Below are positions 4,525 through 21,719 of a DNA stretch of 64,000 nt, in pieces. Numbering within the stretch: position 1 is the stretch's first letter; each line of letters opens with the position of its first letter. The position numbers were made by a program, and so were the translations under genes. Source of the stretch: Acinetobacter phage SH-Ab 15599; sequence record MH517022.1; one strand, written 5' to 3'. A model generated the notes under the pieces. The model worked only from the letters and a program-made list of their open reading frames with translations, searched no databases and was not told where the DNA came from.

Positions 4525-6665
4525 TGTCGCATATCAACTTCAAAACAATTTTTGCTAAAAACTTTCGTTCTATAGACAATGTTGGTCTTACTATTAATTA
4601 TAACAATGGTAAAAGCACTCTCGTTGCCTCTACTGATAATGGATCTGGTAAATCTACCATCTGGCGAGATGCGTTGTTTTACCTCTTGTTTGATAAGCCT
4701 TATGCGAAAGGTCAAACAAAGTCGCAACTGATTAACTCTCGTTCAGGTAATGGTTGTTTGGTACGGGGTGAATTTGAAAAGGGTGGCGTTGAATATGTTG
4801 TTGAACGAGGACAGAAGCCCTCTGTATTCAATATTACTGTTGACGGTACACCTCTCAATAAAGAAGCTGTAGACTTTCAAAAGACATTGCTTGATATCTT
4901 AGGTTCTGATGAAAAATTGTTCTCTAACAGTATCATTCTGGGCGCAGACAAGTTTGTTCCATTTACCACAATGGGCGCTGAGGAACGCCGTAAGTTTGGT
5001 GATCAGATGCTAGACCTTCTTGTTGTATCTGTAATGAGCAATGAGAACAAACAACGTTTGAAAGCAATCAATACTGAATTGGATATCAAACAGCCTGAAC
5101 TGTTGGTCATTGAAACCAAGATTACAGCTAAAAAAGAAATCATTGAAGTCAAGAAGCAGAACGGCGTTGAGAAAGAAAACAAGATACTTTCCAACATTGA
5201 ACAAATCAAAGGGCGCATTAAACAGAATCATTCAGATCGAGAATTGTTGGGAGAAGAAATTGAAGCTCTGACAAAACAAGAAACTCTTAAAAAAGATGAA
5301 CTACGTTCCGTCGAACAAACAATCTTTCAAGAGTTCTCTGGCCCGATCAATGATTTAAAATCTGAAATTGAAAAGGCTAAATCTCTTACGTCTGATCAAG
5401 ATACAAAAGAGCTACGCCGTTTACAAGATGAATTGGTGCTTCAGAATAAGGATGTAACCAGACTTCAGGTTGAATATAATGCGGTTGAATCTGATTTCAA
5501 AAACAAATATGCTGAACAAGCTCAATATGTAAAAATCGTTGAAGGTCTGAAAGAAAAGTTAGAAAATTTGAAAGCGCCAGACCGGAATTCACCTTGTTCT
5601 CATTGCGGTGGTGTAGTTGGAGATGATTACTTCGCTAAACATCAAGCTGAGTATGAAGCAAGTAAGGCTAAACTGGTGGCAGGTATTGCTCAAGGCGAAG
5701 AAATGCTTGAGACCTATGCTTCATTGGATCACGCTTATGCCCAATTTGATGAACATGGATCTACTGAGTTGGAAGCTGCTAAAGAGCAAGTTGAGAAGAC
5801 CAAGCTTGCAATTTCAGAAGTTGAAAAACGTTTATACGCATTTGAATCAGAGAAGCGCGGCGCTATTGATAAGGCTGAAGCTAATTTGAAACAAAAACAA
5901 TCTGATCTGAAAACTGAATTGGCCAATCGTTCATCTGGTATCAAGTCTGAATTGGCTACCATTGAAGCTAATATTCGTTCAAAGAATGATCAATCAACTC
6001 AACTCTTATCAACCTTATCTGGTCATGAACGCGATATTGCTTTTGAAGAGAAGACGCTTGCTGACCTGAAAGCTAATTCAGACTTTGCTACTGACGAATC
6101 TGATCTTCTGTTACTTGAAAGTGATAAGGCTCAACTTGATACTGAAATTACTGATCTGTTCAAGAAGAAAGAAATTCAAGAGCTTATGGTCAAGTGTTTG
6201 AAAGACGATGGTATCAAAGCTAAAATGGTGGACAACTACGTTCCATATTTGAATGATCGCATTAACTTCTATCTTGAAAAAATGTCCTTCTATGTTCGTA
6301 TTGAAATGAACAATGAATATGAATTGGAGATGTTTGCTCCTGATCGTAAAGGTCAAACCATTTCTTGTTTATCAGCTGGTCAACAGAAGCGTATTGACTT
6401 AGCGGTATTGATGGCTTGGAGAGATTTAGCGCGTCAGGCCTCTACTAACAGTTGTAACATTCTAATCATGGATGAAGTGTTAGAGGCTATGTCTCAAAAC
6501 GGTATCATTGACTTCATGGAAATGTGGCGTGGAATTGACGAATCTAAGTTCACCAACTTGGTTGTAATTACTCAACGTAAAGACGAGTTCAGTTCATTGT
6601 TTGATGAATGCAAATTCTACAAATTGGTTGATAATACTACTGTGGAGATTAGTGAAAATGAATAA
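4524..6665 (+). CDS. 46: Recombination ATPase gp46 (Rad50/SbcC-like)
   Basis: 713 aa. Walker A GSGKST, a long coiled-coil with a CxxC zinc hook (CSHCGG), signature LSAGQQ and Walker B IMDE. RGQKPSVFNITVDGT matches T4 gp46. Confidence 0.85.
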   Translation: MSHINFKTIFAKNFRSIDNVGLTINYNNGKSTLVASTDNGSGKSTIWRDALFYLLFDKPYAKGQTKSQLINSRSGNGCLVRGEFEKGGVEYVVERGQKPSVFNITVDGTPLNKEAVDFQKTLLDILGSDEKLFSNSIILGADKFVPFTTMGAEERRKFGDQMLDLLVVSVMSNENKQRLKAINTELDIKQPELLVIETKITAKKEIIEVKKQNGVEKENKILSNIEQIKGRIKQNHSDRELLGEEIEALTKQETLKKDELRSVEQTIFQEFSGPINDLKSEIEKAKSLTSDQDTKELRRLQDELVLQNKDVTRLQVEYNAVESDFKNKYAEQAQYVKIVEGLKEKLENLKAPDRNSPCSHCGGVVGDDYFAKHQAEYEASKAKLVAGIAQGEEMLETYASLDHAYAQFDEHGSTELEAAKEQVEKTKLAISEVEKRLYAFESEKRGAIDKAEANLKQKQSDLKTELANRSSGIKSELATIEANIRSKNDQSTQLLSTLSGHERDIAFEEKTLADLKANSDFATDESDLLLLESDKAQLDTEITDLFKKKEIQELMVKCLKDDGIKAKMVDNYVPYLNDRINFYLEKMSFYVRIEMNNEYELEMFAPDRKGQTISCLSAGQQKRIDLAVLMAWRDLARQASTNSCNILIMDEVLEAMSQNGIIDFMEMWRGIDESKFTNLVVITQRKDEFSSLFDECKFYKLVDNTTVEISENE

Positions 6666-9978: not shown

Positions 9979-12576
9979 ATGCAACTCCAACAAGTAGATG
10001 AAAGCGTTGAAGTAACAGGCGGCACAGCCATTAATATGACCATGAACGCAGAGTCTGGTATTGGTTTCCATCTTAACATTTCCAAGTTGTATACCAACAA
10101 GTATGAATCTGTAATTCGTGAAATCTGTTCTAATGCTAAAGACAGTCATGTTGAAGCTGGAAAGGGTCATGTTCCATTTGAAATTTTTCTGCCGTCTGAA
10201 CTATCTCCATATTTGATCATTAAAGATCAGGGTTTAGGTCTAAACAAAGAAGACGCAATCAAATACTTGTCTCAACTATACGCTTCATCAAAACAAGGTT
10301 CAAACGCGGCTTTGGGTGCATACGGTATTGGGGCGAAGTCTCCATTTGCCATCTCAGATTCATATAACATTACAACTGTGAAGGACGGAAAGAAATGTTC
10401 ATTCCAATTTTTCCGTTCTGGACGTAGTTTACCTCAATTGATGCTTTTAGAAGAGTGTGACACAGATGAACCTAACGGGGTTACATTCCGTATTCACGTG
10501 AAAGATTTCCAGCATCAAATCTATGAACGCGCTCTCAGAACGCAGATGTTCATGTTCACGCCAAAACCTATTATTGACGGACAAGCGTGGCCATATGATG
10601 AGCCTGTTCTTGAACGCGAGAAGTTCAATATCAAATTGTATTCTCGTTGTAACATTCAGCGAGACTTCTTTGGCCCTTATGTTCTTGAAATGGGTGGTGT
10701 AACATATCCGTTTGACCCGAGTCAGGTGGATTCATCTACTCGTGAAGTATTCAATGCGATCAAAGAAACAATTGCATCTGATGAGATTCTTGTCATCTCA
10801 GTACCGATTGGGGCTGTAGAGGTTCCAGGTGACCGCGAGCGCGTGGAGTACAGCGAATTCACTATTGAAAGTTTGAAAACGGAACTTCAAACAGTTGTAC
10901 AATCTTTTACCCAAGATGAAATTGAAGAATATATGAAAAACTTCAATGAAACTGAAGGTATGTTTGATACACTCAAAGTAATGAAAGACTTCAGTAACAA
11001 GATTGGTCGTTTGTCTTCATTTATTATTGGTTCTGAAAAACTTGAAGTATCTAAAACTTGGAATTTGTGCTCAAAGCCGTATCTAGCTAAAGAAGGAATG
11101 GTACAACCATCTCATACAGTTACAGCTAACAAATTCAAAGAACGTATTGACGATTGGTATTTGCCTGGCCCCATATATGTACGCAGTATCCCTCAAAAGA
11201 AAGCCATTCTTGCTGATGATAAAGAGACAATCCTTGGTTATGAGGATGAAATCAAATCTTTCAATGTAGAAAAATACAAGATTGGAGAGTTGCTACGAGC
11301 TTCATCTGGGGCTGTAATGTCAAAGTATTATGAAGTGGTTCATATCAACCAAAACTTCTTATACAGTCATAATATTCGCACTCACGATGCAGCAATTGTA
11401 TTTGTTGACACCGAATCTAAGCCTTGTGTGAAGACAACAGACGGTTGGTGGGCTGAAAATCCTCAATATAAAACGGTTATGATTATCAAAGATAATTCTA
11501 AAACCTATGACTTTGCTGATATCAAAGACATTCTTATGACCTTGGATCCAGGCATTGAGTCTCGCTTTCATATGTTATCTGATATGACATACACCAAAGC
11601 GAAGCCTCAGTCAATTGATGGAGTACCAGTTGAGCGTCTAGTGAATGCTGTAGGGTTCCGCGTAGTCAAGGGGCATCCAGTTGTTCACTCAAGAAGTGGA
11701 TACAAAGATGTGAAAGGTATGAGCAACGTTGTTCTTGAAGAGTTGAACAAATATCTGTTTGCTGAGCAGAAGGATGCATTCGCCGCGTATGCTTTCATTG
11801 ACGTTAACACTAACAAATTGTATTACGATCCAGAACATAAATTGTTAATAGACAATTGGGAAACTCATTTCTATTTGGATCTTCAAAAGACAGGTGAATA
11901 TTCAAAACACGCAAAATTATTGTTAATGTCCCCATCTATTGCTAAGAAACATCTTGAGCATATCAAAACATTGGGAACGCCGTCTTTGTATGATATCAAG
12001 ATCGGGGCTGAACGCTTACTTGTGCACAATATTAGACAACCACATAGAATGACTCTACTTCAGAATGTACTCAAGTACAATTACATTTGTAGAAGCCGCA
12101 GTGTTGCTAAAAAGTTTGATTTCTTAGCTGAGTGTATGTCTACCATATTAGGTCTGAACGACCCTCGTGATTATTCACATAGTTGTAAACTTGAGCCATA
12201 TACTTTGTTCAAACAAATATTTGAACGAGACAGTTGGTCTAGAGGTTTGATTAGCAACGCGAATGATGAGATGCGCGAAGATTGGTTCTGGATTCATATG
12301 ATCTTTTTATACGCCGATAAAAATCGTTTCAGTTATGCTTATCGTATGATAAATCATATGTTCTCTAACATTCAACGCGATTTGTTGAAAGAAGAGAATG
12401 AAGTTGATTTTAAAAATGCTGTAGAAAGCAGTAAGAAGAATCCGAGAGGGTTATATGATTTCTTTGTTAATCAAATGATTAACAAAATGGATAAGCATGA
12501 TAGAGCTAAGATTATGAAAGATTATTCAGCTTATCACGCCGACCAAGAAATTGATGATTTTGAATATGAAAATTAA
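9979..12576 (+). CDS. rIIA: rIIA membrane-associated protein with an N-terminal GHKL-type ATPase domain
   Basis: 865 aa. N-terminal GHKL/Bergerat-fold motifs (E..SNA.DS, DQGLGL, GAYGIGAKS). Immediately followed by rIIB. Confidence 0.7.
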   Translation: MQLQQVDESVEVTGGTAINMTMNAESGIGFHLNISKLYTNKYESVIREICSNAKDSHVEAGKGHVPFEIFLPSELSPYLIIKDQGLGLNKEDAIKYLSQLYASSKQGSNAALGAYGIGAKSPFAISDSYNITTVKDGKKCSFQFFRSGRSLPQLMLLEECDTDEPNGVTFRIHVKDFQHQIYERALRTQMFMFTPKPIIDGQAWPYDEPVLEREKFNIKLYSRCNIQRDFFGPYVLEMGGVTYPFDPSQVDSSTREVFNAIKETIASDEILVISVPIGAVEVPGDRERVEYSEFTIESLKTELQTVVQSFTQDEIEEYMKNFNETEGMFDTLKVMKDFSNKIGRLSSFIIGSEKLEVSKTWNLCSKPYLAKEGMVQPSHTVTANKFKERIDDWYLPGPIYVRSIPQKKAILADDKETILGYEDEIKSFNVEKYKIGELLRASSGAVMSKYYEVVHINQNFLYSHNIRTHDAAIVFVDTESKPCVKTTDGWWAENPQYKTVMIIKDNSKTYDFADIKDILMTLDPGIESRFHMLSDMTYTKAKPQSIDGVPVERLVNAVGFRVVKGHPVVHSRSGYKDVKGMSNVVLEELNKYLFAEQKDAFAAYAFIDVNTNKLYYDPEHKLLIDNWETHFYLDLQKTGEYSKHAKLLLMSPSIAKKHLEHIKTLGTPSLYDIKIGAERLLVHNIRQPHRMTLLQNVLKYNYICRSRSVAKKFDFLAECMSTILGLNDPRDYSHSCKLEPYTLFKQIFERDSWSRGLISNANDEMREDWFWIHMIFLYADKNRFSYAYRMINHMFSNIQRDLLKEENEVDFKNAVESSKKNPRGLYDFFVNQMINKMDKHDRAKIMKDYSAYHADQEIDDFEYEN

Positions 12577-12630
12577 TTGATTTTAACATCGCTTTTTATT
12601 TTAAGATAATATTGTTTTAACAACAAACGA

Positions 12631-12657
12631 GGGAACTGATTGGTTCCCTCCATTTTT
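12631..12657 (+). terminator. Terminator after rIIA
   Basis: GGGAAC-TGATTG-GTTCCC hairpin then TCCATTTTT. Confidence 0.5.
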
Positions 12658-12669
12658 AGGAGAGCTGTA

Positions 12670-13827
12670 ATGGCTTATACCGCTGCACAGAAGAAAGACT
12701 TTGTAACCAAAGCAAATCAACTGATTGAATCTGGTTCATCACTTAATGCTGCGTCTAAGGAATTGGGCGTATCTGCTAAAGCTTTGAAAGCTTGGATTGC
12801 AACTTCTGGAGTTGATACAGACTCTGACGTTGTTACAGAAGAGGCTCCGAAGACTACCAAGTCTCGCCGTAAGACAACAGCTGCGAAAACAAAGGCGACC
12901 AAAGCAACTAAGATTGTAAAAGCTGCCACCAAACGTTCTCGAAAACCTGTTGATTCGGAAGCATCAAAGGCTCGTTCTCTATCTCGAGCCAAAAAGAAAG
13001 AAGCGTATACAAAGGCTACTGAAGAACAATCTCAAGATGTTGCTTTTGAAGTTACATTGAAGGTTATCCGTATTACAGGTAATATCGTTGTAGCAATTAA
13101 TGGACAGTCTCACGAAGTCCGTTCTACTCATGAAAAGTACGCTGAAATTGACAAACTTCTGAACCTTTACGGAGACGGCTGTACCAAAGAACAAGCAGCT
13201 GCTTTAACCACTCTTATCGTTGGAGAGAAGGTGGAACGCATTGCTAAATGGACTAAGGGCAAACTGGTTATTGATAATGGTCAGGTACTTTGGGAAGGCA
13301 AACCAATTATTGGCGGTCTCAAAACAATCTTGATTCGTCACGCAGAAAGCGGAGATGAAGCTGCTCTCAGCGCCTTCTCCAACTTCATTGCTAAAGTACG
13401 TCAGTGCGTTTCATATAAGGTCAACCAACGCTTTTTTGAATTCATTTCAAAGAACAGCTTGAAAATTGACGCGGACGGTGATATCCTAGCGTTCAAAGTG
13501 GTGCGTGAAAATTACTTTGATAAGCATACTGGTACATTCAACAACTCAATTGGTACAACAGTTGAGATGCCGCGTAATGAAGTAGATGACCAAGATAGTA
13601 ATACTTGTTCAGCAGGTCTTCATATCTGTTCAGCTGATTATATTGGTTCATTCAGCAACAATGGCGACCGCGTTGTGGTTGTTAAAGTGAACCCTATGGA
13701 CATCGTATCTATCCCGACTGACTATAGCAGCTCTAAATGCCGTACATGCCGTTACACAGTCATCAAAGATGTAACTGCTGAATGGAAAGCTGGTACAATC
13801 AAAGAATATACAGAAAATCACAAGTAA
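12670..13827 (+). CDS. rIIB: rIIB protein
   Basis: C-terminal NYFD.H...F.NS.G..V.MPR..VDD.D...CS.GLH.CS..YI..F....DRVV.VKV.P.D.VSIP.DY...K.RTC.Y matches T4 rIIB closely. RBS AGGAGAGCTGTA-ATG. Confidence 0.9.
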   Translation: MAYTAAQKKDFVTKANQLIESGSSLNAASKELGVSAKALKAWIATSGVDTDSDVVTEEAPKTTKSRRKTTAAKTKATKATKIVKAATKRSRKPVDSEASKARSLSRAKKKEAYTKATEEQSQDVAFEVTLKVIRITGNIVVAINGQSHEVRSTHEKYAEIDKLLNLYGDGCTKEQAAALTTLIVGEKVERIAKWTKGKLVIDNGQVLWEGKPIIGGLKTILIRHAESGDEAALSAFSNFIAKVRQCVSYKVNQRFFEFISKNSLKIDADGDILAFKVVRENYFDKHTGTFNNSIGTTVEMPRNEVDDQDSNTCSAGLHICSADYIGSFSNNGDRVVVVKVNPMDIVSIPTDYSSSKCRTCRYTVIKDVTAEWKAGTIKEYTENHK

Positions 13828-17497: not shown

Positions 17498-18175
17498 ATG
17501 AAGATTTTAGGTGCACTTGACGTAATGAAGAATGCAACAGCTAATGAGACATTCTTGTTGAATTTCGGAGCTGTTGGTTTAGACAAATGTTTAAAAAACA
17601 AGGGAGAAACATTCTTCCTTGAAGCAAAGTATGAAACAGAACTTCCAAACCCAATCAGTTACAGTTGTAACTTGATTATGTTTGTTATGTCTGGTTCTAT
17701 TATTATGCACAAGTATAACTCAATAGACGCTCTACAATTTGATGACACTAGTGATAAGAACGTCAGATTCATTGAAGAACCTGTGAACCCAGATATGTCT
17801 CCTAAACGAGATTTGGCTGTCTTGAACGCGCCGTCACATTGGGAAATTTCTGAATCTGAAGTTTGGGAAGTTGGTTCTTGGCATTTCTTAAACAAATTTG
17901 ATTTCCACTCTTTCCGTATGTCAAAGGGTACGAAAATTCTTTGTATTACAGATGATTTCAATATCGTTCCAACTGATGCTCTTTTCAAAGTTGGACGCGG
18001 CGGCGAACCTATCATTCCAAATGATAAATCTTTCTTGAATAAGCATTTTGCGCCCCCGCAACAACCTAGAGCTAACTTCACAGTTGATAAGACCTCAAAG
18101 CATTCTGAAGATGCAGCTCTTTTTTCTTCGGATTCATCACTTCCTAAAGCGGGCAGCGCCCCAACGAAGAAATAA
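17498..18175 (+). CDS. Hypothetical protein
   Basis: 225 aa. Weak motif resemblance to the preceding ORF (EAKY..hx...). Low-complexity S/P-rich tail. Confidence 0.4.
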   Translation: MKILGALDVMKNATANETFLLNFGAVGLDKCLKNKGETFFLEAKYETELPNPISYSCNLIMFVMSGSIIMHKYNSIDALQFDDTSDKNVRFIEEPVNPDMSPKRDLAVLNAPSHWEISESEVWEVGSWHFLNKFDFHSFRMSKGTKILCITDDFNIVPTDALFKVGRGGEPIIPNDKSFLNKHFAPPQQPRANFTVDKTSKHSEDAALFSSDSSLPKAGSAPTKK

Positions 18176-18346
18176 GGAGGAGAAACTTGAATAGCGTTCA
18201 ATTTACGGCGGTGCTTTTGATAGTATCCACAATATTTTTAACAAGCGACTATGCTCCTAATACATTATCCAAGTTGGGATTCGGCGTTTGTTTTGTATGT
18301 TTCTTCATTGCTTATAAGTTGCAAAAAAGAAACCAACAGTGAGTTT

Positions 18347-18604
18347 ATGTTTATGTTAGAACTATCAAATGAAGATATAAAGTTAGTGGAACAGGCTGGG
18401 TTTGAAGTTAGAATTGCAGCTGAACTCAATTACTATGAAGGTGGTATTGAAACTTTACCCAGATTGAACAGCGCCAGAGTTGAAGTGTTTATTAGATCAG
18501 CTCAATCTAACGGGGTTACTGGTACTATTCATCCAGTTGATATTGTAATCCCTACAGATAAGATTGTTGCTCTAATACGTTTGGCCAGAGGTCAACCAGT
18601 ATAA
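18347..18604 (+). CDS. Hypothetical small protein (start uncertain)
   Basis: ORF 18251-18604. The internal Met at 18347 gives 85 aa. Confidence 0.3.
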   Translation: MFMLELSNEDIKLVEQAGFEVRIAAELNYYEGGIETLPRLNSARVEVFIRSAQSNGVTGTIHPVDIVIPTDKIVALIRLARGQPV

Positions 18605-18617
18605 CCTTCAAATTCAA

Positions 18618-18650
18618 GAATGACTCCTTTATGGGGTCATTTTTATTTCT
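18618..18650 (+). terminator. Rho-independent terminator
   Basis: TGACTCC-TTTA-TGGGGTCA then TTTTTATTTCTT. Confidence 0.5.
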
Positions 18651-18699
18651 TAAAATAAATTAAAAATATTTATTTGATTTTAAGGGTTATTTTCGTTAA

Positions 18700-18710
18700 T
18701 GCTATATAAT
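18700..18710 (+). promoter_or_regulatory. Extended -10 promoter-like element upstream of the tRNA island
   Basis: TGcTATATAAT about 35 nt upstream of tRNA-Arg. Confidence 0.3.
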
Positions 18711-18745
18711 AGCTCTCATGAAACAAGTATGAAGATATTTGTAAT

Positions 18746-18822
18746 GCGCTTGTAGCTCAGTTGGATAGAGCATCCGCCTTCTAAGCGGATGGTCACAGGT
18801 TCGAGTCCTGTCAGGCGCGCCA
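18746..18822 (+). tRNA. tRNA-Arg (anticodon TCT)
   Basis: Cloverleaf by eye: acceptor GCGCTTG/CAGGCGC, D-arm GCTC-AGTTGGATA-GAGC, anticodon stem TCCGC/GCGGA with loop CTTCTAA, T-arm ACAGG-TTCGAGT-CCTGT. CCA is encoded. Confidence 0.85.
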
Positions 18823-18840
18823 ATTTATGAGGTTGTTGTC

Positions 18841-19293
18841 GTGGTTAAGATTACTAACAATGTTGTTATTGACAGTAATGGTTGTTGGATTTGGAACAAA
18901 TCCTTTTCTAGTAACGGATATGGTCAGTTGACTGTAGATAAGCGTTACTGGTTGGCTCACCGTTACTCTTACACGATGTCTAAGGGAGAGATTCCAGCCG
19001 ACAACGTCGTAAGACACAAGTGTCATAACAAGAAGTGTTGTAATCCAGAACACCTTGAAGTTGGTACTCAAGCTGAGAACTGGCAAGACTCTAAAGAAGT
19101 TCATTTGAACAATGCCAAGAACAGACGCAAGCAATGGTCTATCAATGGTAAGTCTTTTGATACTCTTATGGAGGCTCAACGTTCTTCAGGTGTACCAGCT
19201 AAGACAATAGCAAAATATACCGTAAGAGGCGTATTTGATTTAGAGCGTTACAGACAAAGTTGCGCTAGAATAAAACGCGAACCAAAGATTTGA
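18841..19293 (+). CDS. HNH homing endonuclease (HNH_3/AP2-associated type)
   Basis: 150 aa with a GTG start. GCWIWNKSFSSNGYGQLTV, WLAHRYSY and HKCHNKKCCNPEHLEVGTQAEN are the HNH_3 signature. Confidence 0.8.
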   Translation: MVKITNNVVIDSNGCWIWNKSFSSNGYGQLTVDKRYWLAHRYSYTMSKGEIPADNVVRHKCHNKKCCNPEHLEVGTQAENWQDSKEVHLNNAKNRRKQWSINGKSFDTLMEAQRSSGVPAKTIAKYTVRGVFDLERYRQSCARIKREPKI

Positions 19294-19531
19294 TTCGCAC
19301 GGTGAGTGAACTTGTAAACGGTTGAAGCCCCAGATGTGCGGTGGATACGTGAGCTGAAATTGTCTTGAGTAAGCTCTGAGGGACTAGACAAACCTCTCAG
19401 TCAGAAGTTCATTCAACCATGCGAAAGCAATAGACAGAGAACCGATTTGTTCCTTCTCTGGTGCGCGATTAGCATTGACGCGGTGGATGTCTATAAAGCC
19501 ACATCACTTTCTTATGTATGTAAGAGGTGAT

Positions 19532-19607
19532 TCCCTAGTAGCTCAGTTGGTAGAGCGACGGACTGTTAATCCGTGGGTCGCTGGTTCGAGTCCAGCCTAG
19601 GGAGCCA
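19532..19607 (+). tRNA. tRNA-Asn (anticodon GTT)
   Basis: Acceptor TCCCTAG/CTAGGGA, D-arm GCTC-AGTTGGTA-GAGC, anticodon stem ACGGA/TCCGT with loop CTGTTAA, T-arm GCTGG-TTCGAGT-CCAGC, then GCCA. Confidence 0.85.
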
Positions 19608-20152
19608 GATTCAAGACAGTAGCCCGAGAGGGTTATGAGGTGGCTGAGAGAGTGAGCACAAATTGTAAGTACGCATGGTTTGCGAACCACTTGACTTCTA
19701 GGAAGATAGCTAGATGACTGCTGGAAAGACAGCAACCAGATTCTGACTGAATCCATATCGCGGTTGCAGGAAATACCACATGAAATGGTGGCGCGAGACA
19801 CTAACAGTAGACTAATCAGTTGTAAATTCTATTCCCTGAAAGGCTGTCTAATAGGGTATAAACTAACAGCAAAGATGTTTGGATAGGTCAAATAGCAGGT
19901 ACGTCTATGCTTCCTGCTTAAAACTCAATAGGATAGGTTATGACAAACAACGGGTTTTGTTAGGATGATAACCTTGTAACTGCTCCGGCAAGTGCAGAAC
20001 AATCAAAGAATTTAAGAATAAGGCTGTTGAAGGGCAGCCACCTCTAGCTATCTTTCAGGGTAGTCATGAGAATGATAGTGTAAAGGTCTTTGCTGAAGAT
20101 TCACCTTTACATGAAAGGTCTCAGGAGCCGAGAGTTAAACAAACCCTTCATT
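19608..20152 (+). ncRNA. ORF-free, highly structured spacer between tRNAs; candidate stable small RNA(s)
   Basis: 545 nt with no ORF of 60 aa or more on either strand except a tRNA-antisense artefact. Multiple local inverted repeats (GTAAAGGT..ACCTTTAC, AGCAGG..CCTGCT) and repeated AGGATAGGT words. Confidence 0.3.
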
Positions 20153-20226
20153 CCCTGGCTGGTGTAACAGGTAGCACAATGATCTTTCAGATCATGGTTT
20201 AGGTTCGAATCCTAGGCTCGGGGCCA
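20153..20226 (+). tRNA. tRNA, anticodon read as TTC (Glu) - tentative
   Basis: Acceptor CCCTGGC/GCTCGGG (one mismatch), D-arm GTGT-AACAGGTA-GCAC, anticodon stem ATGAT/ATCAT with loop CTTTCAG, T-arm TTAGG-TTCGAAT-CCTAG, then GCCA. Short variable loop. Confidence 0.55.
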
Positions 20227-20445
20227 TTTCGAAAGCCAATTGTAAAGCACTTATCAAATACAAAGATCGCAACTTTGGGTGGATGAGGAAGGTGCTTCAA
20301 ACTCCGAAAGGATACCTCGCCAAATCACAGTTGGCTTTCGAAATTGCTGCTAATAACAAATAAAATAATAATTTGAAATACTCACTCCTCTCTAAACTAC
20401 ATTATACTTCCTTCATACAAACTATCTCTCAATGGAGAAATGTAA

Positions 20446-20780
20446 TGAAGCTGTGTAAAATCAATAATGCCTTTGAACAAGGCGAAGAAAACAACTACCT
20501 CTCTCAAGATGATATCAATGAATATCGTACTCACCCTGTCTTCAATGAACTGTACGAAAAGGTTATTGGGGATAAACCTCTTGCGCTCTTAGGGCCAGAT
20601 GAAGATTTTGAAGATTCAATCTTCCCTTGTGATCTCCCTTCTTTGGCTCTACGCTATAAAGATGCTTCTGTTGGTAATCTTACAATGGGCGATATCTATC
20701 ACGGCGTAGTGGATGGAGTAGAGTGTTTCGGTATGCACTGGGACTATACAGGCTTGTTATTGTTCGCGGCAGGGGAATGA
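20446..20780 (+). CDS. Hypothetical protein
   Basis: RBS GGAGAAATGTA-ATG. 111 aa. Confidence 0.4.
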
Positions 20781-20781
20781 T

Positions 20782-21252
20782 ATGGAATATATCATTATTG
20801 CTATCATTTCTATAGCATTTGGGTACTGGATTGGTTTACGCAATGGAGTAGCCAAAGGGGTAGAGTCAGTTGAATCATACTGGTTGCCTGATATAGTTAT
20901 GTCTGATATCAAAGGCGCTTCGGACATAACATTCCAAAACTTCATCCAAGATTTCTTTTCTGAATTTATCAGAATTTGTAATTCAAACGGCGAAGTTGCC
21001 TTTGATGATATTAGTCTTGTACTCTCCGTATTTAAGGAGACGCATCCTATTTTCAAGAAATATGATTGTCTTAGACATACCGACAATTATTTGATCTATG
21101 AAGACAAATATCGTTCTATAGTCATAGGAACAGACGGCGATTTATTCAAGTTATATGAATTACGGGAAGGTATAACGGGAATAAATTATAGCCAAAAATA
21201 TCAAATGTTTGGTCTTTTTGACAAATCATTCAGCGGTGGAGGGATGTATTAA
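20782..21252 (+). CDS. N-terminal-TM small protein, paralog A of a tandem pair
   Basis: Shares E.VESYW.P.I........F.NFI.DFF.E.I..C...G......I..VLSVF...HPIFKKY..L.R with the next ORF. Confidence 0.5.
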   Translation: MEYIIIAIISIAFGYWIGLRNGVAKGVESVESYWLPDIVMSDIKGASDITFQNFIQDFFSEFIRICNSNGEVAFDDISLVLSVFKETHPIFKKYDCLRHTDNYLIYEDKYRSIVIGTDGDLFKLYELREGITGINYSQKYQMFGLFDKSFSGGGMY

Positions 21253-21719
21253 TGGATATTTTAATGACATCAATTGGCGTAGGCGGTATAGTCTTAGGTT
21301 ACGTTTGTTACTTGTTCGGTCACTATTCTGGTTACAAATCTGGAATTGAGACTGTGGAATCTTATTGGAAACCAAATATAATTTTAGATGAAAATTTCCA
21401 AGGTGCGAAGACTCTCGAGTTTCATAATTTTATCAAAGACTTCTTCACAGAGTACATTACCCTCTGTGAAGAACAGGGTGTAAAGCCTTATGATCAGATT
21501 GGTCAAGTTCTCTCTGTATTTCACGATAACCACCCGATATTCAAGAAGTATAAACACCTCCACAGAATCAACGGAGTAATTTATTATGCTGACGATTTCC
21601 GTAAAATTGAATTCAAAGCAGACGGGGATGTATACAAATTATATGAAATTAAGAGCGATTCTGTGGGATACAGTTATAATTACAATTATTTCTATTTTGT
21701 ACAGTCTTTGGATTACTAA
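21252..21719 (+). CDS. N-terminal-TM small protein, paralog B of a tandem pair
   Basis: ATGG overlap with paralog A. Collinear similarity. Confidence 0.5.
   Translation: MDILMTSIGVGGIVLGYVCYLFGHYSGYKSGIETVESYWKPNIILDENFQGAKTLEFHNFIKDFFTEYITLCEEQGVKPYDQIGQVLSVFHDNHPIFKKYKHLHRINGVIYYADDFRKIEFKADGDVYKLYEIKSDSVGYSYNYNYFYFVQSLDY

Follow-up and report, generated by a model that had tools for sequence, protein, structure and literature searches.

How do three tRNA genes of a phage come to stand well apart, with an endonuclease gene and long stretches of DNA lacking a credible open reading frame (ORF) around them? This arrangement, referred to here as the tRNA island, is found in Acinetobacter phage SH-Ab 15599 (sequence record MH517022.1), a cultured phage with a 143 kb genome that has been proposed for therapy and whose DNA contains a hypermodified thymine (PMC13458397), and we have analyzed it within a 64-kb stretch of that genome (hereafter the window). 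Taking the explanation as a whole, we think it likely that the island is a single tRNA operon enlarged by a selfish HNH gene and by RNA modules. The insertion histories of related HNH genes in other phages and the compensatory base changes within the modules carry this explanation, and a compact operon in phage nACB2 provides the comparison.

The tRNA genes and their counterparts in nACB2

ARAGORN finds three tRNA genes in the window and no others, all on the plus strand: tRNA-Arg (UCU) at 18746-18822, tRNA-Asn (GUU) at 19532-19607, and tRNA-Glu (UUC) at 20153-20226. Genes were accepted as tRNAs if they scored above the gathering score of 29 with the Rfam covariance model RF00005 and had a 7-nt anticodon loop; all three qualify, scoring 72.6, 73.8, and 41.0 bits, respectively, and all encode the CCA end. 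An initial annotation of this sequence had named the Arg-TCT and Asn-GTT genes together with a third tRNA, and had proposed ARAGORN as a check; that run returned the same three genes, with the Rfam model agreeing on each.

The third gene had been left in need of confirmation as Glu-TTC, with attention drawn to an acceptor-stem mismatch and a 3-nt variable loop. Both peculiarities are present (the mismatch is U4/C69), and with an ARAGORN call of Glu-ttc and an RF00005 score of 41 bits against the gathering score of 29, its identity as tRNA-Glu is confirmed at the level of sequence. The gene carries U11-A24, U13-G22, and the anticodon loop CUUUCAG, all of which are shared with the tRNA-Glu of a contig (L062) that also carries a related HNH gene, and with E. 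coli tRNA-Glu. Normally tRNA-Glu has a short variable loop, and the identity set of E. coli GluRS consists of the UUC anticodon with A37, U11-A24, U13-G22, and a short variable loop without residue 47. As read from its sequence, the window tRNA-Glu has this full set; it deviates at the first pair (C1-G72, not G1-C72), at the U4/C69 mismatch, and in its variable loop, which has 3 nt rather than 4 nt.

Phage nACB2 is the only known relative of SH-Ab 15599, and according to the literature neither phage has a closer one (PMC10057805). Close relatives of SH-Ab 15599 were sought with an exact protein, a 225-aa neighbour, and rIIB, and none was found in the collections searched, the rIIB search returning one relative that is 33% identical and lacks tRNAs. 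The nACB2 rIIA has 40% amino acid identity and lies at an equal distance from tRNA-Arg, and the tRNA-Arg genes of the two phages share 94% nucleotide identity. The nACB2 operon is compact, consisting of tRNA-Arg, 115 nt, tRNA-Asn, 2 nt, and tRNA-Ile(CAU), and neither an HNH gene nor a long spacer is present in this orthologous operon. The two phages also have in common a motif (GTTAAT...CTATATAATA) upstream of tRNA-Arg, a homologous right border downstream (AATAACAAA..AATAAAATAAT), and a hairpin loop in their Arg-Asn spacers (AUUAGCAU(U/G)GAC).

This last spacer appears to survive in part in the window. A segment at 19412-19531 on the plus strand may be a remnant of the ancestral Arg-Asn spacer, as 19412-19500 aligns with positions 2-94 of the 115-nt nACB2 spacer with a score of 36, just moderately above shuffled sequences (22.3 +/- 4.0; 1 of 200 shuffles reached 36). 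The alignment gives modest support to the presence of ancestral sequence in the first spacer, which the initial annotation had not foreseen.

We also observed that in nACB2 the promoter motif is separated from tRNA-Arg by a distinct leader of ~190 nt that includes an inverted repeat of ~20 nt (contig L004, 2930-3012), compared to ~35 nt in the window. The order and spacing of rIIA and rIIB are equal in the two phages; the window genes (rIIA-like, 865 aa; rIIB-like, 395 aa) occupy 9979-13827, ~5 kb upstream of the island.

The HNH gene and its relatives

Between tRNA-Arg and tRNA-Asn there is an intact gene (18841-19293, plus strand) with a GTG start that encodes an HNH_3 endonuclease of 150 aa, 100% identical to SHAb15599_00126. 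The product matches the Pfam HNH_3 profile (PF13392) with E = 8.9e-13 and 48.1 bits against a curated cutoff of 24.8, and it also matches several PHROG HNH families. R58-H59, C61, C67, N68-P69, H71, and N80 are invariant among eight members of its clade, and the catalytic His/Asn/His and zinc-binding Cys residues of the His-Me finger are kept. The gene is free-standing, with its own Shine-Dalgarno sequence (GAGG, 18829-18832) and start codon, and lies outside any intron or intein, models of group I and group II introns giving no match. Its leader is the 18-nt gap (18823-18840, plus strand) between the CCA of tRNA-Arg and the start codon, and as this leaves no space for a separate promoter, the gene is presumably co-transcribed with tRNA-Arg. 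The initial annotation was thus correct in placing an HNH_3-type gene just after tRNA-Arg.

If ancestral spacer resumes at 19412, the inserted block would extend from 18823, directly after the tRNA-Arg CCA, to ~19411 (~590 nt). The 3' part of this block (19294-19411, plus strand) consists of ~118 nt of unique sequence, and base pairing is possible between its first 20 nt (19294-19313) and 19405-19425, where the putative ancestral spacer starts. A residual fragment of tRNA-Arg was searched for downstream of the HNH gene and none was found.

The nearest homologues of the HNH protein are 43-55% identical and are scattered among jumbo and other large unrelated phages and metagenome contigs, and in five of the seven other contexts examined the gene adjoins tRNA genes. 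The order is tRNA-Ser, 16 nt, HNH in Alishewanella phage Slickus01; tRNA-Met, 22 nt, HNH, tRNA-Leu in Klebsiella phage Centimanus; and tRNA-Arg, HNH, tRNA-Met in Aeromonas phage PS1. The HNH stop codon of contig L062 abuts a tRNA-Arg(TCT) that heads a cluster of 20 tRNAs, and in Agrobacterium phage Atu_ph07 a tRNA-Arg(TCT) lies 140 nt off on the opposite strand. Two contexts (L059/L060 and L061) have the gene away from tRNA genes. The window, with a full tRNA, 18 nt, and then HNH, has the Centimanus/Slickus01 type of arrangement.

Comparisons within two groups of phages are informative as to how these genes arrived. The Centimanus HNH block is exactly absent from at least nine Klebsiella phage relatives with flanks that are 93-98.5% identical, and HNH-less FBKp24 has a single, intact tRNA-Met at this locus. 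Centimanus has a full-length tRNA-Met of other sequence, followed by the 22 nt, HNH, and, directly after the HNH stop codon, a 3' fragment of the resident tRNA-Met (L066, 1945-1975). Among Aeromonas phages HNH is present in PS1 and absent in AVP1; the resident tRNA-Met is intact in AVP1 and is cut within the anticodon stem in PS1 (L068, ~1409-1441), such that the truncated tRNA-Met is followed by HNH and then by a full variant tRNA-Met. Contig L062 is laid out like PS1, with a 5' tRNA fragment at 2912-2947. The co-occurrence of a truncated resident tRNA and a full variant tRNA indicates that elements of this clade bring along a tRNA as a replacement for the resident one, which they break.

Presence/absence polymorphism and tRNA scars together constitute a strong homing signature for the clade. 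The proposal in the initial annotation that the HNH gene is a selfish insertion analogous to segB of phage T4 is supported by these polymorphisms in Klebsiella and Aeromonas phages. Alignment with related phages had also been suggested there as a way of recognizing homing, and this comparison is favorable in part: HNH is polymorphic within the clade and is absent from nACB2, which is a single and distant relative at the window site.

RNA modules and other parts of the spacers

Three ORF-free spacers, at 19294-19531 (238 nt), 19608-20152 (545 nt, between tRNA-Asn and tRNA-Glu), and 20227-20372 (146 nt), hold just short ORFs or antisense ORFs that overlap the tRNAs, amounting to ~0.9 kb with no credible ORF; the initial annotation had recognized two such spacers and ~0.8 kb. 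Their GC content is 0.47-0.495 compared to ~0.35 in the flanks, and they fold with z-scores against shuffled sequences of -2.36, -1.24, and -3.56, respectively. Folding energy alone is weak evidence that the spacers are structured, and it is comparison between phages that gives real support, through the covariation of modules A and C and of hairpin Pb, described below; the earlier description of the spacers as structured RNA thus appears to hold for these parts, and folding energy does little to extend it.

By BLAST, three separate pieces of the 545-nt spacer (modules A, B, and C) have counterparts in unrelated Acinetobacter phages, and these invariably lie where there are no ORFs. Judged from these matches, the Asn-Glu spacer is more than a spacer, having a mosaic content of RNA modules shared piecemeal with ORF-free regions that contain tRNA or transfer-messenger RNA (tmRNA) genes in unrelated Acinetobacter phages, which was unforeseen in the initial annotation.

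Module A (19636-19694, plus strand) consists of a 6 bp helix P1 (19638-19643 paired with 19687-19692), a near-invariant core of 28 nt (CUGAGAGAGUGAGCACAAAUUGUAAGUA; 19644-19671) with the consensus CUGAGAGAGUGAGCACAAA-NNN-U-N-AG-K-A, a 5 bp hairpin P2 with a variable loop (19672-19684), the dinucleotide AA, and the return strand of P1, such that a purine-rich core is clamped by two covarying helices. Members were collected by scanning sequence collections with conserved 17-20-mers and removing chance matches, and the phage copies were also found by BLAST, which matches BP10, BUCT628 (Obolenskvirus), phage vB_AbaM_3098 (hereafter 3098), and IMG/VR contig L005. Phage genomes and contigs from IMG/VR and metagenomes account for these 14 distinct sequences, together with a single Delftia acidovorans genome. 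In an independent MAFFT alignment (A3) 90.9% of cells are paired, 10 of 11 pairs have compensatory changes, and slid controls pair at 31-40%, with 0 of 500 shuffles scoring as high; on the 14 distinct sequences the outcome is unchanged, with slid controls at 30-41%. Compensatory substitutions therefore exceed the controls, as expected of a structured RNA motif.

About 38 of the 48 metagenome matches to the 17-mer were set aside as chance, many of them apparently within coding sequences, as judged by eye and with covariance model R1. The sole literature return for the core sequence was plant miR156, and the 14 nt that it shares are a coincidence.

Companion hairpins flank module A on the plus strand. 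Hairpin Pa (UAGCCC-GAGA-GGGUUA; 19620-19635) precedes it, and in other phages this position is taken by a hairpin of different sequence. Hairpins Pb (19698-19713), with the conserved loop GAAGAUAG, and Pc (19719-19734), with a GAAAGA loop, follow module A in Acinetobacter phages, among which three of the five Pb pairs have compensatory changes.

Module A is commonly close to a tRNA or tmRNA gene. It begins 28 nt after tRNA-Asn in the window and 45 nt after tRNA-Arg in phage 3098, and it lies 13 nt before tRNA-Asn in L051, 43 nt before a tRNA-like gene in L006, 29 nt before a permuted tmRNA gene in BUCT628, and 244 nt before a four-tRNA cluster in L016. No tRNA or tmRNA was found near module A in BP10, L005, L028, or L063. 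The core resembles a tRNA D arm (GCUGAGAGAGU-GAGCAC compared with GCUCAGUUGGUAGAGCAC), and in two metagenome contigs, L048 (~620-760) and L038 (~499-600), it is joined to a T arm and a CCA-bearing acceptor strand, the acceptor strands of L038 being in permuted order. Neither ARAGORN nor Rfam calls these fusions, which may be tRNA-like chimeras or tmRNA-like ones lacking a coding sequence. The tRNA-like gene of L006 (4148-4224, minus strand) scores 31.9 bits with Rfam, is not called by ARAGORN, and has the anticodon loop CUUAAGU.

In the GC-rich members L063, L016, and L006, module A forms one arm of a ~135-nt four-way junction with a closing helix of 10-13 bp. The L063 junction, in a chromosome contig of Delftia acidovorans MMO-42 (4995-5136), folds at z = -5.2, and L063 is the sole match to a 20-nt module A pattern among 185,579 species genomes.

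None of the modules matches an Rfam 15 family at E <= 10 in searches of 18000-21000 and 19590-20400, which gave only the tRNAs and noise at no more than ~16-22 bits, and the homologous regions of other phages likewise have no Rfam match. Group I introns, GOLLD, ROOL, HEARO, ribozymes, and tmRNA were ruled out for the window, as this permissive search returned only tRNAs. Neither Rfam 15 nor the searchable literature, with a 2023 catalogue of 10,006 viral csRNAs lying outside the comparison, describes the RNA modules.

Module B (19749-19809, plus strand; hairpin at 19758-19796) is 93.5% identical to a sequence in phage phiAC-1 and 89% identical to one in L005, where it is located upstream of module A, and the order of modules has thus been shuffled. 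Module C (19893-20008, plus strand) is a multi-helix element of ~115 nt that lies between tRNA-Arg and tRNA-Met in phage Ab1-TPeters and directly after module A and Pb in phage 3098; 94.6% of its alignment cells are paired and 13 of 31 pairs are compensatory, compared to 36-53% pairing in slid controls, in an alignment of three sequences from which the structure was itself derived. A degenerate module C pattern has 0 matches in IMG/VR, and an exact 19-mer match in L008 is a chance match within a coding region. No endonuclease genes were found beside the modules in 3098, BP10, and L005, the only related observation being a RusA homologue in L005.

Two of the phages that share modules with the window carry permuted two-piece tmRNA genes, reported by ARAGORN as tmRNA*. 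That of BUCT628 (MZ593728; L009, 1586-1919) scores 124 bits (123.9) with RF04321 and that of 3098 (PV081573; L010, 2393-2729) scores 108 bits, with predicted tag peptides ANDNVFGAKTLAA and ANDSTFGTRALAA, respectively; no feature is annotated over either gene in the record stretches retrieved. With these two genes (123.9 and 108 bits) as positive controls, no tmRNA or tmRNA-like domain was found in the window by ARAGORN or by RF04321 at E <= 10, and T arms occur only in the three tRNAs.

The island has other parts as well. At its left border, an intrinsic terminator-like hairpin and T run (18616-18644, plus strand) close the upstream gene, whose ORF stops at 18604, and are followed by a promoter-like extended -10 sequence (TGCTATATAAT; 18700-18710, plus strand), read by eye ~35 nt upstream of tRNA-Arg. 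Between module C and tRNA-Glu there is ORF-free RNA with local hairpins at 20022-20039 and 20079-20111 (20009-20152, plus strand). To the right, a long hairpin (20223-20347, plus strand; z = -3.56) has 21-nt arms (20223-20243 and 20327-20347) that are 90% complementary and enclose 83 nt; its 5' arm begins inside the tRNA-Glu CCA end, and it is a possible processing stem at the right end of the island. The first spacer has no BLAST match among phages, and neither it nor the third has a local BLAST match to loci L001-L063.

A search for repeats across the window found tRNA-derived repeats only and no repeat amplification. There is a 14-nt direct repeat (12 of 14 positions identical) between the HNH leader (18825-18838) and the junction of Pa and P1 of module A (19633-19646), which may be all that is left of a module A that once stood behind tRNA-Arg, the arrangement seen in phage 3098, or may have arisen by chance. 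A perfect 12-bp long-range complement (19703-19714 with 20043-20054) spans modules B and C; it was considered as the closing helix of a large domain and set aside, as it is not conserved in other phages and is probably due to chance. Directly downstream of the island are tandem paralogous genes (20782-21252 and 21252-21719) encoding proteins of 156 and 155 aa that are 40% identical and both have a hydrophobic N-terminus, the first gene ending 1 nt into the second.

Origin of the island and comparison with known systems

The explanation that we prefer supposes that transcription probably starts from a single promoter near 18700 and yields a polycistronic precursor, which, as the layout suggests, would carry tRNA-Arg(UCU), the HNH mRNA, tRNA-Asn(GUU), the RNA modules, and tRNA-Glu(UUC). 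Relative to the compact nACB2 operon it would contain two additions, the ~590-nt HNH block and ~400 nt made up of modules A, B, and C and the hairpins. By analogy with the other members of the clade, the HNH enzyme would cut an HNH-less allele of the tRNA gene in a co-infecting phage, with the HNH gene then being copied in through recombinational repair, and processing of the tRNA precursor would limit HNH expression. The modules would have moved as cassettes among unrelated Acinetobacter phages by recombination in RNA-gene regions, and modules A and C appear to be kept by selection on RNA base pairing. Enzymes of tRNA processing would free the modules as small stable RNAs, similar to rnaC and rnaD of phage T4.

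A number of observations weigh against this explanation. The absence of HNH from nACB2 concerns one relative at the window site, and as nACB2 is distant the presence/absence comparison is a weak one for SH-Ab 15599 itself; there is no truncated tRNA beside the window HNH gene, unlike in Centimanus, PS1, and L062. The alignment with the nACB2 spacer exceeds the shuffled controls by a modest amount, the promoter near 18700 was recognized by eye and is not called by a consensus scan, and no homologue was found for 19294-19411, 20009-20152, or 20227-20372. The 545-nt spacer as a whole folds no better than its shuffles (z = -1.24), module B has only one compensatory pair, and the module C statistics come from few sequences. 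Most members of module A were found with a 17-mer from the core as the search pattern, and the invariance of the core is thus partly by construction; the helices are unaffected by this bias, and the core is likewise kept in the phage copies that BLAST recovered.

As to what the modules do, we place first, tentatively and at somewhat short of even chances, the proposal that they are stable RNAs acting in tRNA- or tmRNA-related or counter-defence biology, ahead of cis-acting signals and then of debris. With similar reserve, module A with Pa and Pb (and module C in some phages) may represent an undescribed class of structured phage RNA with a function tied to tRNA/tmRNA biology. A candidate role for module A is that of a tRNA-mimicking decoy or cofactor acting on host tRNA-targeting defences or processing enzymes, and the class has possibly moved between unrelated phages as a cassette with the help of tRNA-gene-homing endonucleases. 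The alternative that the modules are cis-acting processing or regulatory elements seems to us doubtful. Module A would then be a tRNA-like punctuation signal for RNase P, RNase E, or RNase Z that sets the ends of the adjoining tRNA, tmRNA, or mRNA in polycistronic transcripts, consistent with its D-arm-like core, its distance of 13-45 nt to the tRNA or tmRNA gene at five loci, its position in L017, L034, and L046 at 40-130 nt before an ORF that has a ribosome-binding site, and the fusion of the core to a T arm and CCA-bearing acceptor strand in L048 and L038. However, BP10, L005, L028, and L063 have no nearby tRNA or tmRNA, the module may be either upstream or downstream of its neighbour, and the ~135-nt junction of L063, L016, and L006 looks like a self-contained RNA. 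Were the spacers instead decaying remnants of tRNAs and permuted tmRNAs together with recombination debris at a homing hot spot, without present function, one could account for the mosaic order of modules shuffled between phages, the permuted tmRNAs beside the same modules in BUCT628 and 3098 with none in the window, the tRNA fragments that the HNH clade demonstrably leaves, the ~400 nt of the island that lack a homologue, and the insignificant folding z of the 545-nt spacer. We regard this as improbable in light of the compensatory changes at 10 of 11 pairs in module A, 13 of 31 in module C (three sequences), and 3 of 5 in Pb, of the retention of the 28-nt core across Acinetobacter phages, GC-rich contigs, and a Delftia genome, and of the failure of any tRNA or tmRNA model to match the spacers even at E <= 10.

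Two further alternatives concern coding genes. The HNH gene could be kept for its benefit to the phage, through SegB-like amplification or preferential inheritance of the tRNA/RNA island as an anti-defence locus, a reading that is compatible with homing and does not exclude the explanation we prefer. SegB, which is enriched beside tRNA genes, allows escape from Septu by amplifying a tRNA-Tyr segment (PMC13096335), the window HNH is intact with all of the residues that are invariant in the clade, and the clade travels together with a replacement tRNA; on the other hand, the only repeats in the window are tRNA-derived and show no amplification, and HNH_3 and GIY-YIG enzymes are unrelated, and we think this benefit unlikely to be the reason for its retention. 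That the spacers encode small proteins, such as the product of an 88-aa antisense ORF (19535-19801) or of ORFs of 40-41 aa, we find hardly credible. Such ORFs exist mechanically, and the annotation of phage 3098 lists a comparable antisense ORF, covering tRNA-Arg and module A, as a hypothetical protein, but the candidates overlap tRNA genes on the opposite strand, module A varies at paired positions with compensation around an invariant 28-nt block in a manner that is not codon-like, and indels in the P2 loop are of 1-3 nt and not confined to multiples of three.

The operon explanation finds its closest known architecture, by analogy, in the T4 tRNA cluster with segB, rnaC (species 1), and rnaD (species 2), which has the order 7 tRNAs, segB, tRNA-Arg, rnaD, rnaC. 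In both, a phage tRNA operon is broken by a free-standing endonuclease gene beside tRNA-Arg(UCU), and small stable non-tRNA RNAs (rnaC and rnaD) follow in T4, with the window modules as their putative counterparts. SegB, for which homing activity is proven, causes the tRNA region to be inherited preferentially (PMC2330249), and it has recently been shown to amplify tRNA loci, escaping a tRNA-cleaving defence (PMC13096335). The two systems differ in that SegB is a GIY-YIG enzyme and the window enzyme is HNH_3, and in that the window modules are located between tRNAs and are common to unrelated Acinetobacter phages. We considered rnaC and rnaD as module homologues and rejected them, the best BLAST match having E = 0.17 and model R1 giving at best 9.1 bits in the T4 cluster. 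The F-Tfl endonucleases of phage T5, which are HNH-type enzymes, are likewise encoded by ORFs embedded in a phage tRNA gene cluster. Processing of the transcript has been proposed to lower their expression (PMC2330249, citing Akulenko et al. 2004).

With T4 segB and T5 F-Tfl already known, a homing nuclease in a tRNA cluster is ordinary. What is new on the nuclease side is a clearly bounded HNH_3 clade whose members insert into tRNA genes and bring a replacement tRNA, and for which natural before-and-after homing alleles are available in Klebsiella and Aeromonas phages. Less expected are RNA modules that appear to be under structural selection, are exchanged among unrelated Acinetobacter phages, and are co-located with tRNA or permuted tmRNA genes. 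Phage tRNA loci act against tRNA-cleaving immunity, and conserved non-tRNA RNAs embedded in them are therefore candidates for functions in counter-defence or RNA processing.

Permuted tmRNAs (RF04321/RF01850) resemble this system in that modules A and C and hairpin Pb stand beside such genes in BUCT628 and 3098, and in that the two metagenome contigs have T-arm and acceptor-strand sequences fused to the core of module A, although the window itself has no match to a tmRNA-like domain or tag reading frame. Among the large structured RNAs without known function, GOLLD and ROOL often occur in phages near tRNA genes, and HEARO is associated with HNH genes. The window has no Rfam match to these RNAs (E <= 10) and differs from them in its architecture, which is a chain of modules of 40-115 nt and not one large ornate fold.

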